Positions 2,198 through 42,750 of a stretch of 64,000 nucleotides of DNA are shown here, in pieces (within the stretch, counting starts at the first letter, position 1; the number at the start of each line of letters is the position of its first letter). Both the position numbers and the translations under genes were made by a program. The DNA comes from an uncultured Oscillospiraceae bacterium (GTDB lineage: Bacteria; Bacillota; Clostridia; Christensenellales; CAG-314), in the NCBI GenBank assembly GCA_964577535.1, contig CAZNZO010000003.1:69620-133619 (forward strand). The letters are read 5' to 3'. The notes beneath the pieces were generated by a model. It was given only the letters and a program-made list of their open reading frames with translations. It was not told where the DNA came from and made no database searches.

Positions 2198-3403
2198 CTA
2201 TTTAACAATAACTTTTAGGTGATTCTTCTTGCCCTTGTGCAAAACAAATTCGCCTTTTTCAAGCGTTTCGGCACTAAGAGTCCAGCCGATGCTTGCAATT
2301 TTTTCGTCGTTGACGGAAACACCGCCACCTTCCACCAGGCGGCGAGCTTCGCCGTTGGATTTGCACAAACCGCACTTAACCAAAATATCAATTATGTTGG
2401 TGGGGTTTTCGATTGTGACTGTGGGCATATTTTCGGCATCTTGCGAGAATGCTGCGCGCACTTGTTTTAGCACTTCATCTGCCACTTCTTTGCAGTGAAC
2501 AATTGCCGTAACTTCATAGGCAAGGCGTTCTTTTGCGGCATTGATGCGTTCGTCGTTGTATGCACACATTTCTTCAATTTCTTCAACGGGCAAAAACGTT
2601 AATAGCTTCAAGCAAGTTTCCACTTTTACATCTTCAACGTTGCGCCAGTATTGGAAAAATTCGTAGGGGGTGGTTTTGTTGGGATCTAGCCACAAAGCGC
2701 CTTTGGCAGTTTTGCCCATCTTTTTGCCTTCGGACGTGGTTAGCAACGTGAATGTTGCTGCATAGGCAGGTTTTTGCAGTTTGCGACGAATAAGATCCAC
2801 GCCGGCAAGCATGTTGCTCCATTGATCATCACCGCCCATTTCCAAAATGCATCCGTAATCTTCGTTCAACTTCAAAAAGTCGTAGGCTTGCATAAGCATG
2901 TAGTTGAATTCCAAAAAGGTTAGGCCCTTTTCGAGGCGTTGCTTGTAGCATTCGGCTGTTAGCATTTTGTTGACGGAAAAACATGCGCCAACGTCACGCA
3001 AAAAGTCCACGTAGTTCAACTTGCACAGCCAATCGGCATTATCCACGAATATTGCCTTGCCGTCGGAAACGTCAATGAAACGCGCCATTTGCTTTTTGAA
3101 GCATTCCACGTTGTGCGCAACCGTTTCTTTGGTCATCATTTTGCGCATATCAGTGCGGCCACTGGGATCGCCGATCATGCCGGTGCCGCCACCAATCAAA
3201 ATTAGGGGGCGATGTCCGGCGCGTTGCATGTGCGCCATTGCCATAAGGGTGACAAAATGTCCGGCAGTTAAACTATCGGCTGTAGGGTCGTAGCCGATAT
3301 AAAAGGTTACTTTTTCTTTATCTAGCAGTTCATACAGCTCGTCGCCATACACCGTTTGTTTCAAAAATCCGCGTTCCTTCAATACGTCAAGAACATTTTT
3401 CAT
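2198..3403 (-). CDS. tyrS: tyrosine--tRNA ligase
   Basis: 401-aa ORF. It has a class I HIGH-type region (PTADSLTAGHF), a KMSKS-type KKMGKT and a C-terminal S4-like domain (ARRLVEGGGVSVN). Confidence 0.95.
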   Translation of the reverse strand: MKNVLDVLKERGFLKQTVYGDELYELLDKEKVTFYIGYDPTADSLTAGHFVTLMAMAHMQRAGHRPLILIGGGTGMIGDPSGRTDMRKMMTKETVAHNVECFKKQMARFIDVSDGKAIFVDNADWLCKLNYVDFLRDVGACFSVNKMLTAECYKQRLEKGLTFLEFNYMLMQAYDFLKLNEDYGCILEMGGDDQWSNMLAGVDLIRRKLQKPAYAATFTLLTTSEGKKMGKTAKGALWLDPNKTTPYEFFQYWRNVEDVKVETCLKLLTFLPVEEIEEMCAYNDERINAAKERLAYEVTAIVHCKEVADEVLKQVRAAFSQDAENMPTVTIENPTNIIDILVKCGLCKSNGEARRLVEGGGVSVNDEKIASIGWTLSAETLEKGEFVLHKGKKNHLKVIVK

Positions 3404-5164: not shown

Positions 5165-5893
5165 TTAGTTTGCGCCGTCGTTGGTGATGGTTAGGAAAAT
5201 GCTTTCCAACGAAACGTTTTCGTCTGCACGAATGTTATCCAAAGTGTCCACTGCAACAAGCTTGCCATGGTTTATTATGGCAATTCGGTCGCAAACCTTT
5301 TCCACCACGTCAATTACGTGTGAACTGAAAAAGACGGTGTTGCCGGCATCGGCGTGCTTGCGCATTAGTTGCTTCAATTGATATGCCGATTGCGGATCCA
5401 ATCCCGTTAGAGGCTCGTCCAAAACCCAAACTTTTGGGCTATGAATAAGCGCGGCAATAATCATCAACTTTTGCTTCATTCCGTGCGAATAGGAAGAAAT
5501 GAGGCTGGGCAACGCATCCGTCAGACCAAACGTTTGGGAATATTCTTCTATGCGGCTTTTTAGCACTTCCGGCTTGACGTCGTACATGGTGCCGATAAAG
5601 TTGAGATATTCGATGCCTTTTAGCGTATCGTAGCACTCGTGATTATCCGGAACAAAACCTATGCGACTTTTGGCAAGCGCCGGGTGCTCGGCCAAATTTA
5701 CGCCGTCCACTTCGATGGTGCCGCAGTTGGGAGACAAAATTCCCGTAATCATTTTTATTGTGGTAGATTTTCCGGCGCCGTTGGGCCCCAAAAACCCAAA
5801 AATTTCACCGTCCAAAATTTCCAAAGATAAATTGTCAACCGCAAGGGTTTTGGATTTGGCATAGGATTTTGAAACGTTAGTTAATCGTATCAT
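5165..5893 (-). CDS. ABC transporter ATP-binding protein
   Basis: Walker A GPNGAGKST, signature-like YSHGMKQKL and Walker B VWVLDEP. The start is placed at ATG 5891-5893 (MIRLTNVSKSY) behind a GGAGG SD; the longer ORF-track start has no SD. Confidence 0.9.
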   Translation of the reverse strand: MIRLTNVSKSYAKSKTLAVDNLSLEILDGEIFGFLGPNGAGKSTTIKMITGILSPNCGTIEVDGVNLAEHPALAKSRIGFVPDNHECYDTLKGIEYLNFIGTMYDVKPEVLKSRIEEYSQTFGLTDALPSLISSYSHGMKQKLMIIAALIHSPKVWVLDEPLTGLDPQSAYQLKQLMRKHADAGNTVFFSSHVIDVVEKVCDRIAIINHGKLVAVDTLDNIRADENVSLESIFLTITNDGAN

Positions 5894-39934: not shown

Positions 39935-40237
39935 TTGCACCATGACTGGCCACAAAAGGCAAAAGGCTTGCCGCGTTGCGTTTTTGAAGAAGAGTTTTCA
40001 AGCGCGCGGTGGTTTCCGTACATGACAAGGCGCACGACAAAAATTTTGAAAAGACAAAACTGCAAGTGAAAATTTTGTTTTTGAAAAAATAGAGAAAGCA
40101 TTCCCCCAAAAAGCAAAATAACACTGCCAAAAAGATATATTTTGGGAAATAATAAAGAAAAATGGCCTTGCAATTGCAAAATTGCAGAAAACCATTGACA
40201 AAAAATTGAACTCAACAAAAGCAAACGAAGGTTGAAA

Positions 40238-40690
40238 ATGAGAAAAAAACTGACATTTTCGATAATCTTGATGGCATCTTCGGCAATGCTTGTTGCATTG
40301 TGCGTTGTTTTGCTGAACGTAAATTCGCTGGTGGCCAACCAAGATAACCAGGCTTCCACCGCCATTTTGTCGTGGGCTTTTTTGGGAATTGCACACTTCA
40401 TTTGGCCGATTTTGGCGTTGCTTTATTTGGTGCTTGCGATAATTGCACTAAAAACAAAAAGCATTGTCACAGCAAAATGGGAAAGTTTGTTGCTGATGGT
40501 TGTTAGCTTGGCTGCACTGCCGCTGTGCATTATTTCTTCTGCGCTGACATTCAAACTTGCGCCGTTTTCGGCCGTTATGGGCGTGTTTCAGGCTTTTGGA
40601 ATTGCCGCACACATTGCCGCAACAGTGACATCCATTGTGGTTTTTACCAAAACAAAAGGCAAACAAGACAAACAAAACGACCTGGAATGA
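40238..40690 (+). CDS. small 4-TM membrane protein (unknown function)
   Basis: ATG 40238 lies 6 nt after GAAGG. The protein is hydrophobic with a basic C-terminus. Confidence 0.7.
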   Translation: MRKKLTFSIILMASSAMLVALCVVLLNVNSLVANQDNQASTAILSWAFLGIAHFIWPILALLYLVLAIIALKTKSIVTAKWESLLLMVVSLAALPLCIISSALTFKLAPFSAVMGVFQAFGIAAHIAATVTSIVVFTKTKGKQDKQNDLE

Positions 40691-40844: not shown

Positions 40845-41300
40845 CTATTCTTTCTTTTTAGTGTCGAATTCTTCTTGTGAAATTATTCCGCTATCAAGCA
40901 ATTCCTTGAATTTTTTCAACTCATCAGCAGGCGAAAGTGCTGCTGTGGGATTGTTTCGTTGCTGCTTGTAGTAGGCAATTCTATCCTTGATATATTGGTA
41001 AGCCTTTTCAAACTCTTCAATATCTGTCAAACCTTTCATAATGATGAATGTGTTTTCACTATCGAAGTTTCTTCTTCCATTATTGGATCCTGGATACTTA
41101 AATTGAATAAAGCCATTCACCAGTCTGGTCGCTTTCTTATATTGAACGGCTGTCAAATCGGAATAATAAAATTCTTTACTTCCGCTAAAAGCTCTACCGC
41201 CAAGGAATCCTAACAACGTTTTCTTTCCAGTTATAACGCAGTGATCTTCAAATACCGATAGTTTTGCAACATTTCCATCTAACTCAAATAATGCATCCAT
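40845..41300 (-). CDS. bacterial PH-like domain plus C-terminal SHOCT domain protein
   Basis: The start is set at ATG 41298-41300 (MDALFELDG) behind an AGGAG SD. The C-terminus ELKKFKELLDSGIISQEEFDTKKKE is a SHOCT signature. Confidence 0.8.
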   Translation of the reverse strand: MDALFELDGNVAKLSVFEDHCVITGKKTLLGFLGGRAFSGSKEFYYSDLTAVQYKKATRLVNGFIQFKYPGSNNGRRNFDSENTFIIMKGLTDIEEFEKAYQYIKDRIAYYKQQRNNPTAALSPADELKKFKELLDSGIISQEEFDTKKKE

Positions 41301-41318
41301 GTTCTCTTCTCCTCTTGT

Positions 41319-41354
41319 ATAAAATAAAAAGTGCGCCAACCGAAGTTAACGCAC
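41319..41354 (-). terminator. strong intrinsic terminator 18 nt upstream of the SHOCT gene's ATG
   Basis: The minus-strand RNA is GUGCGUUAAC-UUCG-GUUGGCGCAC: a 10-bp stem with 2 G.U pairs and a UUCG tetraloop. It is followed by UUUUUAUUUUAU. Confidence 0.8.
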
Positions 41355-41378
41355 CGAAAAACGCAAACCCCGATTGTC

Positions 41379-41535
41379 GCCAAACAAATCGAAGATAGAA
41401 GAGGGACGAATCCTTTGTGTCCTAACCCGCGGAATTTGCGCTTTTACCAAATTTCATCAAAGATTAGGTTGCACGAAAAAGATAGACTTATCCCTAAAAG
41501 AAACGTCCACCTCAAAAATATTCGATTTGTTTGGC
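41379..41535. other. 157-nt element closed by a perfect 15-bp inverted repeat (candidate structured RNA or MITE-like element)
   Basis: gccaaacaaatcgaa (41379-41393) pairs with ttcgatttgtttggc (41521-41535). The helix is extended by gagggacg / cgtc-ca-cctc. Confidence 0.6.
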
Positions 41536-41662
41536 ATATTCACTATATCACATACAAAGATTTTTCAAGTGCTTTACAAATAAAAACTCTACACCAACAA
41601 AACTTTGCGAATGAACACACGATGCAAAAGGCGTTGATACTCCACGCCCCTCGGGCGGCACG

Positions 41663-42004
41663 CTAGAAGCCAAGGCTTACTAGCAAAGCGTTATCTATTT
41701 TTTGCATAACTTCGGCGGGCAATTCGCCAATTTTATCCTTCAAGCGGCTTTTATCGATGGTGCGAATTTGCTCCAACAACACGACGGAATCCTTTGGCAA
41801 GGGCGTTTCCGCACGAGAAAGCCCAACGTGCGTGGGCAATTTGGCCTTATAGAGTCGCGAAGTTGTTGCCGCCGCAATCACGGTTGGGCTAAACTTGTTG
41901 CCGACGTCGTTTTGCAACACCACAATGGGGCGTATTCCACCTTGCTCGCTACCCACAACAGGGTTCAAATCTGCGTAATAAACTTCTCCTCGTTTAACTG
42001 TCAT
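41663..42004 (-). CDS. mazF: MazF/EndoA-type endoribonuclease toxin
   Basis: [43 protein letters not shown]...[13 protein letters not shown] closely matches B. subtilis EndoA as I recall it. The start is set at ATG 42002-42004 behind GAGGGG. Confidence 0.9.
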
Positions 42005-42698
42005 TTTAGTCCCCTCAATTTTGGGCAAACACTCTTTTGCACGAACAGCAGACATTTTCCGCGCCGCTTGTTTGCACGTGACAGCGGACATTAGCGCACT
42101 TGAAAATGCGTTTTGCCAGGCATTTTGACGTTAGCTGCGGCTTATTACACAATGCATAAAATTCTGTTTGATGCGCCGAAGGCACAAACACACAACGCTT
42201 TGTAGTTTTGCACAAGAAGTTAAAAGATAGCGGCAGTTCTTCAAAGATTTTGCAGAATGGCAAAATAGTTACTGCGAACAGCACACAATGCAATAAGTTT
42301 TGTTTTGCTTGCAGGCATGGAAAACTTTTTTGCTCTGCGTGTTTCAAGTGCCAAAACCACAGTTGTGCAAAGTTTTTGCTGCATGGCAAAAAATTTACTT
42401 TGGCTAGTATACACTATGTAACAATTGCAAAAAGTGTTAGCACGGTTATTGTTGCCAACAACACGTTTGCATATACTTAAACTAGAAAACCCGATCGCAC
42501 CACCTCCCAAACGTTTTTTGTTGAACACACCCCACACCGAAAACCACAAGCAAAACCGCAAAACAAACACGAAAAACAAACAATGTTGCAAAAATATAGA
42601 ATAAGCAAAAAGCGCAACTAATTAACAACGACAAACACAAACTAAAAAAGTTGCACGACTTTGCAAAATCAAAAGCCCAACAAACCGCAAAAAACGCA

Positions 42699-42736
42699 AC
42701 AAAAAAAGACGCACTGCACAGTAGCAATGCGTCTTT
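42699..42736 (-). terminator. valS intrinsic terminator
   Basis: Stem AAGACGCA/TGCGTCTT (42706-42713 / 42728-42735), followed by UUUUUUU on the minus strand. Confidence 0.65.
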
Positions 42737-42750
42737 TGACTGCAAAAAAA

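Follow-up and report, generated by a model that had tools for sequence, protein, structure and literature searches.

The window examined here is the whole 64,000-nt stretch (64 kb) of contig CAZNZO010000003.1 (GenBank assembly GCA_964577535.1, positions 69,620 to 133,619) from an uncultured Oscillospiraceae bacterium. On its minus strand the toxin gene mazF is followed by a gene for a SHOCT-domain protein, and the intergenic region between the two genes holds the element under study, a predicted structured leader RNA that is preceded by a promoter and ends in an intrinsic terminator. A sequence-only reading of this DNA had described a 157-nt element whose ends form a perfect 15-bp pairing with an inward extension, and behind it a 24-nt linker, a 10-bp UUCG hairpin with a U-tract, a Shine-Dalgarno sequence (SD) and, after 18 nt, an ATG. 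All of this is present at the coordinates given; the closing helix was recovered by an inverted-repeat search and its extension by folding. The features are listed below in the direction of transcription (MFE, minimum free energy; PK, pseudoknot; the long form is the larger of two size classes of the element).

42004-41663, minus strand: mazF (PemK_toxin, E = 1e-35)
mazF to SHOCT gene, minus strand: intergenic region of 362 nt
41542-41568, minus strand: leader promoter, TTGAAA (41568-41563), 15-nt spacer, extended -10 TGaTATAGT (41550-41542)
41521-41535, minus strand: P1 5' strand, GCCAAACAAAUCGAA, which would open the transcript; from the inverted-repeat search
41394-41520, minus strand: long-form structured core, from the MFE fold and 35 long-form homologues
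41513-41504 with 41408-41401, minus strand: P2
41495-41489 with 41484-41478, minus strand: P3a hairpin, followed by a U-run
41468-41461 with 41428-41421, minus strand: P4
41453-41448 with 41438-41433, minus strand: P5 hairpin (-3.1 kcal/mol)
41430-41445, minus strand: segment Y, AAAAGCGCAAAUUCCG, the P5 loop and 3' strand; internal PK strand
41379-41393, minus strand: P1 3' strand, UUCGAUUUGUUUGGC, in perfect 15-bp pairing with the 5' strand
41378-41355, minus strand: linker of 24 nt
41366-41376, minus strand: antiterminator 5' strand, CAAUCGGGGUU, in the linker; pairs with 41347-41337
41357-41372, minus strand: segment X', CGGGGUUUGCGUUUUU, in the linker; distal PK strand, overlapping the antiterminator 5' strand
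41319-41354, minus strand: intrinsic terminator, GUGCGUUAAC-UUCG-GUUGGCGCAC and then UUUUUAUUUUAU, from the terminator scan
41337-41347, minus strand: antiterminator 3' strand, AACUUCGGUUG, spanning the loop of the terminator and the upper part of its stem on both sides
41314-41309, minus strand: SD GAGGAG, with the ATG 18 nt past the terminator U-tract
41300 (ATG) to 40845 (stop), minus strand: SHOCT-domain gene, 151 aa, with a weak DUF4429 match

Promoter, closing helix and terminator

The extended -10 of the leader promoter ends 6 nt ahead of the first helix base in the window, so that transcription would begin with P1, at G41535. The short spacer of 15 nt is the reason why the scan tool overlooked this promoter. 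Among the family members described below the pattern TGnTAnnnT ends 4-9 nt ahead of the 5' arm in 97 of 114 cases, often together with a good -35, and the -10 typically ends 5-7 nt ahead of the closing helix. Between the terminator and the ATG the promoter scan of the window found no sigma-70-like site on the minus strand, in agreement with the sequence-only reading; its conclusion that expression of the SHOCT gene relies on readthrough has to be revised, as the leader carries its own conserved promoter directly upstream and expression is therefore not dependent solely on readthrough from mazF. The SHOCT gene beside mazF would thus be a regulated unit with a promoter of its own and not merely a product of readthrough from the toxin gene.

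The closing helix was returned as inverted repeat I1, 18 nt long and 94% complementary. Exact matches to the P1 15-mer are confined to its two arms in the 64 kb, and with up to 2 mismatches there are four matches against 0.79 expected. P1 continues inwards through AU/AU and then GAGG..GACG / CGUC..CCUC. The 176-nt stretch folds with an MFE of -54.8 kcal/mol compared to -37.2 ± 4.1 kcal/mol in shuffled sequences (z = -4.3), and none of 200 shuffles folded as well. The terminator consists of the 10-bp UUCG hairpin at 41354-41331 and the U-tract UUUUUAUUUUAU at 41330-41319; the terminator scan gave it as 11 pairs with a 4-nt loop and TTTTTATTTT, that is, a G+C-rich hairpin followed by a U-run as is characteristic of intrinsic termination.

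A leader family of gut and rumen Clostridia

Relatives of the element were gathered first through loci encoding SHOCT proteins and then by a nucleotide search with the intergenic region of the window, which matched 12 of the SHOCT-relative loci. Conservation peaks in the 3' arm, the linker and the hairpin: over its 3' 70 nt the leader keeps about 85-92% identity in loci where identity of the protein behind it has dropped to about 40%, and about 90% is reached even where the proteins have no more than the SHOCT domain in common. The genomes in question are metagenome-assembled genomes (MAGs) labelled Acutalibacteraceae, Oscillospiraceae, Eubacteriales or Clostridia, from the guts of ruminants and other animals. 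A degenerate pattern built from the 3' arm and linker alone was then used to scan metagenome and viral contigs and returned at least 120 metagenome loci and 9 viral contigs. From gut and rumen metagenomes and from MAGs of Clostridia at least 118 distinct full-length copies were extracted. All full copies keep the hairpin and U-run terminator, and they share one plan: an extended -10, the 5' arm GCCAAACAA or ACCACACAA, a core, the complementary 3' arm, a linker with the consensus RRCAA..GGRG..UGCGUUUUUCG, the hairpin and the U-run. They fall into two size classes, a short form of about 165 nt (~153-190 nt) and a long form of about 210 nt (~190-245 nt), to which the window belongs. Some copies lie in tandem or close together (L178:1501-1674 and 2532-2704, minus strand; L091:67-286 and 342-498; L189:5513-5582 and 5658-5814), and in L178 each of the two copies precedes a gene of its own. 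Such clusters suggest multi-copy regulons and local duplication of a gene together with its leader.

Comparison with Rfam, which the sequence-only reading had proposed as a check, did not assign the element to a family even under permissive settings. The whole window gave no match to Rfam 15 at the gathering score; at E ≤ 10 the region 41200-41800 returned only a snoRNA and SR6_antitoxin, the latter driven by the terminator and, at 16.4 bits, far under its gathering score of 55, and a scan of five short-form loci found nothing. 6S RNA, a single-copy housekeeping RNA of about 185 nt whose closing stem and central bubble mimic an open promoter, does not account for the family either: there is no Rfam 6S match, tandem copies exist and the coupling to downstream open reading frames (ORFs) is tight. 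A description of the motif was not found in the searchable literature, including the catalogue of Fremin and Bhatt 2021 (PMC8040213), although unnamed entries in large catalogues are possible. As judged by this comparison, the element is one copy of a widespread conserved RNA family that is absent from Rfam 15.

Covariation in two core architectures

MAFFT alignments proved too poor for structure prediction, with RNAalifold returning only P1 and a spurious linker hairpin. Covariance models were therefore built from single representatives and the family was realigned to them, which gave a short-form model with 41 sequences (R1) and a long-form model built from the window with 35 sequences (R2). 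In the short form a 13-bp P1 is followed by an asymmetric internal loop in which AAUA is conserved, a P2 of 15-20 bp with variable sequence, the hairpin P3 (UGCGUUUUUAC-UUYG-GUAAAAACGCA), a 3' bulge J of 13-16 nt containing CUCC, the linker and a 12-bp terminator. The long form comprises P1, P2 and a three-way junction with P3a and its U-run, P4 and P5, and the P5 loop and 3' strand carry the conserved sequence GGUAAAAGCGCAAAUUCC.

Both architectures are well supported by the realigned sequences. In the short-form core 95.8% of the cells are paired compared to 76.8% after column shuffling, a value reached by none of 500 shuffles, while slid controls gave 33-54%; compensatory changes occur in 38 of its 52 pairs. 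In the long-form core, with the window counted among the 35 homologues, the figures are 92.0% against 70.1% in shuffles, with 56 of 68 pairs compensatory. P4 stands at 96% with all eight pairs covarying, P1 shows GC/AU, CG/UA and AU/CG exchanges in addition to G-U wobbles, and the terminator is paired to 98-99% in the homologues, again with compensatory changes. Non-Watson-Crick cells in these structure-fitted alignments are G-U or U-G far more often than A-C or C-A (186 versus 16 and 235 versus 41), and the constraint therefore acts on the RNA of this strand. The family thus has a conserved structured domain with covariation, as is expected of a riboswitch.

Two further observations concern P1. 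The conserved AAUA (AATAT or AATAA in the DNA, resembling a -10) lies directly past the P1 5' strand, at about +13 to +19 and at about 41522-41517 in the window; a tertiary contact, the binding site of a protein and a signal for pausing close to the promoter are among its possible roles. In short forms (for example L088, L098 and L135) the terminator strands resemble the arms of P1: the 5' arm GCCACACAA has a near counterpart in the 3' strand of the terminator (GCCACACAC), and the 3' arm UUGUGUGGC has one in its 5' strand (GUGUGUGG). In the window GGUUGGCGCAC (41340-41331) resembles GUUUGGCGAC (41388-41377). This apparent likeness might permit further alternative pairings or be due to a shared recognition.

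Mutually exclusive pairings of the linker

The linker has two partners. Its 5' part can pair with the terminator apex to form an antiterminator (AT; in the window 41376-41366 with 41347-41337), and its segment X' can pair with segment Y and the UCC that follows it to form the PK (41445-41430 with 41372-41357, 16 bp). The AT is 88.4% paired in the short form, with seven compensatory pairs (0 of 500 shuffles) and variants such as CAAAUGG/CCAUUUG, CAAACGG/CCGUUUG and CAAGC.../...CUUG, and 94.9% paired in the long form. The PK comprises 14-16 bp family-wide with 93-95% of cells paired; in the 35 long-form homologues its 14 core pairs are 93% paired with five compensatory pairs. Triplets of Y and X' covary throughout the family as CGC/GCG, UAC/GUA (7 copies), CAC/GUG (3 copies) and UGC/GCA (6 copies), and only this Y/X' table was used because regular-expression anchoring of X was noisy. 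When not in the PK, Y is held locally in P3 of the short form or P5 of the long form, by a partner that resembles X'. A U.A-U triplex of the two U-runs with the A-run was also considered and dropped, since the GC part of X' covaries as Watson-Crick pairs and an alternative pairing is the simpler explanation.

AT and PK exclude each other, and each also excludes the terminator or the local hairpins. The calculated energies in the window are -18.0 kcal/mol for the AT, -14.5 kcal/mol for the terminator, -21.2 kcal/mol for the PK duplex and -3.1 kcal/mol for the P5 hairpin. Unconstrained MFE folding of the window prefers the AT to the terminator, and in 58 of 116 copies the MFE structure of linker plus terminator is AT-like; by energy alone the combination of PK and terminator is favoured in the window. 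The family therefore has what an expression platform of a riboswitch consists of, a terminator and an antiterminator that cannot form together. On these alignments the linker appears to be a switching strand and not a spacer, and the UUCG hairpin part of a conserved switch and not a generic terminator.

Genes behind the leader

Linkage to the downstream genes was assessed in RNA-anchored loci, i.e. loci found through the RNA alone and thus unbiased as to the gene. In 57 of 93 such loci (61%) an SD with an ORF of at least 60 aa lies within 60 nt of the terminator, compared to 7.5% of random positions, and the preferred spacing from terminator to ORF is about 20 nt. An ORF start is present within 150 nt in 74 copies. 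The leader is accordingly found where a riboswitch would be, in the 5' untranslated region, on the same strand and directly upstream of an ORF.

The downstream genes are heterogeneous, 98 of their proteins matching 64 Pfam families. SHOCT was found in 14 downstream proteins, mostly at SHOCT-anchored loci, followed by BspA-type leucine-rich repeats (7 proteins), zinc ribbons (about 5), extracytoplasmic function (ECF) sigma domains (4) and DUF1413 (3). A hydrophobic segment is present in 62 of 96 downstream proteins, and many open with a lipoprotein-like MKK...L..C signal. For the most part, they belong to the exported, membrane and surface proteome, and a metabolic pathway common to them is not apparent. 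Homologous leaders, which the sequence-only reading had suggested looking for upstream of SHOCT or PH-domain genes, do exist in large number, but the family is not tied to such genes. A SHOCT-specific leader was rejected on the ground that only about six of about 96 downstream proteins in RNA-anchored loci carry the domain; the association with SHOCT in loci L007-L086 arose because that search was anchored on SHOCT. A leader peptide was likewise rejected, as none is conserved and the candidate region is the variable P2 helix. A look by eye revealed no K-turn, RAT (ribonucleic antiterminator), TRAP, PyrR or ANTAR motifs.

Probable conditional termination and alternative explanations

Promoter, helices, covariation, mutual exclusivity and linkage to downstream genes can all be read from the compared sequences. 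Taken together they argue, with a probability of roughly 0.7, for a self-contained conserved cis-acting leader RNA that governs the downstream gene by conditional transcription termination. The ligand- or protein-controlled attenuator of the sequence-only reading is borne out by the comparison as far as a leader gating a terminator is concerned, for which support is strong, while its control by a ligand or protein is something we infer. In the mechanism we propose, transcription would start at about 41535 from the dedicated extended -10 promoter, and the nascent RNA would fold into a core, either a rod or a three-way junction, that P1 closes. The linker could then pair with the terminator apex to give the antiterminator, with readthrough and the gene on, or it could pair with the A-rich Y and the adjacent UCC to give the PK, an anti-antiterminator. 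In the latter case the PK would sequester GGRG and the bases following it, the AT would be blocked and the 10-bp terminator would stop transcription at 41330-41319, leaving the gene off. The outcome would be set by whatever stabilises or opens the local hairpin of Y or occupies the linker. Because the PK and the terminator together are energetically favoured, our best guess is a leader that is off by default and is switched on by an effector that blocks the PK.

Switching, its direction and the existence of an effector are what we infer from the sequences. As the putative effector, a small molecule is about as plausible as an RNA-binding protein. Sensing of a small molecule is conceivable but somewhat doubtful. 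Tentatively, one may think of a new riboswitch class in which a ligand-sensing aptamer uses a PK as anti-antiterminator and responds to a signal not known to have a riboswitch so far, perhaps an envelope-related one or a second messenger. With the same reserve, the regulon of such a riboswitch in uncultured gut and rumen Oscillospirales might comprise lipoproteins, membrane and zinc-ribbon proteins, BspA-like surface proteins, ECF sigma fusions and SHOCT proteins. The invariant outer part of P1 and the AAUA would fit recognition by a protein as well as tertiary contacts.

Several points weigh against conditional termination by this RNA. PK and AT show modest covariation, since the sequence of either strand is conserved, and some measures were reached by a few shuffles; fitting a nested structure with a covariance model also inflates the pairing percentages. 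The outer 9 bp of P1 are near-invariant in sequence, which is unusual for the P1 of a riboswitch and hints at protein recognition or a constraint at the DNA level. Riboswitch-controlled genes would be expected to share a pathway, and no metabolic theme that could indicate the ligand is seen among the downstream genes. The PK would have to join the tip of a rod of about 30 bp to a tail that starts 8 nt past P1, so that a fold-back geometry would be required. Finally, a natural strain (L004) lacks the -35 and part of the -10 of the leader promoter.

The element could instead be a stand-alone gene of about 210 nt, from promoter to terminator, for a small RNA (sRNA) that acts in trans, for example through an exposed CUCC/UCC or the A-rich loop; the downstream gene would then be a mere neighbour, or the terminated leader would have a second role in trans. 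The strong promoter and terminator of the element agree with this, as do its high sequence conservation, which includes single-stranded C-rich and A-rich segments, and the tandem copies at some loci. We nevertheless consider an sRNA gene unlikely, given that the 61% of loci with a same-strand SD and ORF within 60 nt far exceed the 7.5% found by chance, that the spacing is kept at about 20 nt and that a covarying antiterminator would be purposeless if termination were constitutive; a dual role of the RNA is conceivable, however. A related explanation is a structured 5' leader that works constitutively, as an insulating cassette of promoter and terminator which fixes a low level of readthrough or stabilises the mRNA but does not sense anything. 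Gene content from which no ligand can be deduced and the thermodynamic preference for PK plus terminator would suit such a cassette, which seems rather improbable to us all the same, as three mutually exclusive helices kept with compensatory changes across two core architectures are hard to understand without switching.

Two explanations at the DNA level have less to recommend them. In an inverton the 15-bp repeats would be recombination sites and the orientation of the segment between them would decide on terminator formation, as in cwpV of Clostridioides difficile. Repeats conserved in sequence do lie between a promoter and genes for surface, lipo- and membrane proteins, and an internal segment does pair with sequence outside the repeats. 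Yet in 94 of 94 copies that could be scored the core points the same way (a test at the level of assemblies, many of them independent), mismatches in the helices are overwhelmingly G-U over A-C, a sign that selection acts on the RNA of a single strand, and inner helices without a role in DNA covary; among the genes of the window no recombinase gene was noticed beside the element. An inverton is thus very unlikely. The sequence-only reading had also raised a mobile insertion similar to a miniature inverted-repeat transposable element (MITE), bounded by the 15-bp terminal inverted repeats. MITEs are scattered through genomes in numerous nearly identical copies, which have terminal inverted repeats and target-site duplications and show no dependence on gene context. 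The perfect 15-bp inverted repeats and the many family copies in metagenomes recall such elements, but the identical copies that would have spoken for mobility are missing from the 64-kb window, where the element is single, and the copies elsewhere are divergent with compensatory changes instead of near-identical. Position and orientation are fixed between the promoter and the terminator-gene unit, conserved sequence runs past the repeats into linker and terminator, and a target-site duplication is not present. Moreover, no match to the leader was found in the plasmid database, and the phage database gave only two partial ones in unannotated contigs of uncultured faecal origin. We therefore regard a MITE as practically refuted.

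If the leader RNA does control termination as proposed, it would be an abundant orphan regulatory RNA in the dominant and largely uncultured Clostridia of gut and rumen, placed in front of a poorly understood exported and surface proteome, and it would help in finding the signal by which these bacteria coordinate their envelope and surface genes. The design of the switch is directly testable, as compensatory mutations are evident from the alignment, and the covariance models would allow the leader to be annotated in MAGs.

Surroundings of the leader in the window

On the far side of mazF the next gene is valS, and between the mazF stop and the leader promoter lie two overlapping hairpins.

45474-42751, minus strand: valS
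41626-41658, minus strand: two overlapping hairpins past the mazF stop; context, outside the conserved family
41658-41645, minus strand: hairpin 1, CCGCCC/GGGCG, weak
41648-41626, minus strand: hairpin 2, GGCGU/ACGCC followed by UUUU, weak

Both hairpins had been described in the sequence-only reading and are present, though weak and unflagged by the terminator scan, and their region does not align with other family members. The near-identical strain L004 has lost 104 nt between mazF and the leader (L004 4343-4600 compared to about 41650-41547 in the window), and with them most of hairpin 1, all of hairpin 2 and the -35 and TG of the leader promoter; the leader itself is intact and is probably co-transcribed with mazF there. 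Independent Logan assemblies of the locus (L001-L003, L005 and L006) break in or beside the terminator hairpin (about 41348-41378), with an 11-nt gap in one sample; these breaks are probably a problem of coverage or assembly, or strain variation, and not a repeat. A repeat had been suspected from breaks at the element in three Logan assemblies and was discarded, as the breaks fall in the terminator hairpin and contigs from the mazF side span the element.

The gap of about 750 nt between valS and mazF (42005-42750, minus strand) contains neither an ORF recognisable by Pfam nor one resembling the antitoxin MazE. It holds a terminator-like inverted repeat of valS (42704-42737) and a tandem direct repeat of about 126-136 nt (42147-42273 versus 42283-42399, about 83% identical). 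The 64 kb contain three copies of the motif TGCATYGTGT, always on the minus strand and clustered around mazF (41617-41626, 42147-42156 and 42283-42292), a count matched by only two of 100 shuffles. Convergent with the SHOCT gene, a 152-aa membrane protein is encoded on the plus strand (40232-40690); it weakly resembles the PspC/LiaI-LiaF transmembrane region (E = 0.009, below the cutoff), which is loosely in line with the envelope-related theme.

Comparison with known systems

Among systems with repeats between a promoter and a surface gene, the invertible cwpV and flgB switches of Clostridioides difficile resemble the leader in that formation of a terminator sets the outcome. In contrast to these, no inversion was observed here and the constraint is on the RNA. 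Attenuators of the PyrR, TRAP, BglG/LicT-RAT and ANTAR type share with it the competition between antiterminator and terminator, and their conserved RNA target would fit the invariant P1 and the AAUA. In these systems an RNA-binding protein decides the outcome, whereas inspection of the leader by eye showed no RAT, GAG/UAG repeats or dual hexaloop hairpins, and no gene for a cognate regulator is consistently adjacent.

The riboswitches for cyclic di-GMP (c-di-GMP-I and -II) and cyclic di-AMP (ydaO) control similarly heterogeneous envelope, surface and cell-wall genes through intrinsic terminators, and ydaO also has a long closing helix and pseudoknots. They were not detected at E ≤ 10, however, and both conserved nucleotides and helix plan differ. 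In the ZTP (pfl) and fluoride riboswitches, too, base pairing of a distal 3' strand with the folded domain is in competition with the expression platform, much as that of X' would be here. The helix of the leader is far longer (14-16 bp), rich in A and U and preceded by a P1 of 13-15 bp, and we see no homology, with cmscan being negative.

The SAM-I (S-box) leaders of Firmicutes differ from the present family in using the P1 stem as anti-antiterminator, a part which would be taken here by the long-range helix between an internal loop and the 3' tail; here, in addition, P1 is conserved in sequence, the genes lack metabolic coherence and there is no match in Rfam 15. In overall layout the two are alike, with a promoter, a sensor domain on a long P1, an anti-antiterminator, antiterminator and terminator, and an SD with its ORF, and in both the three mutually exclusive helices share strands.

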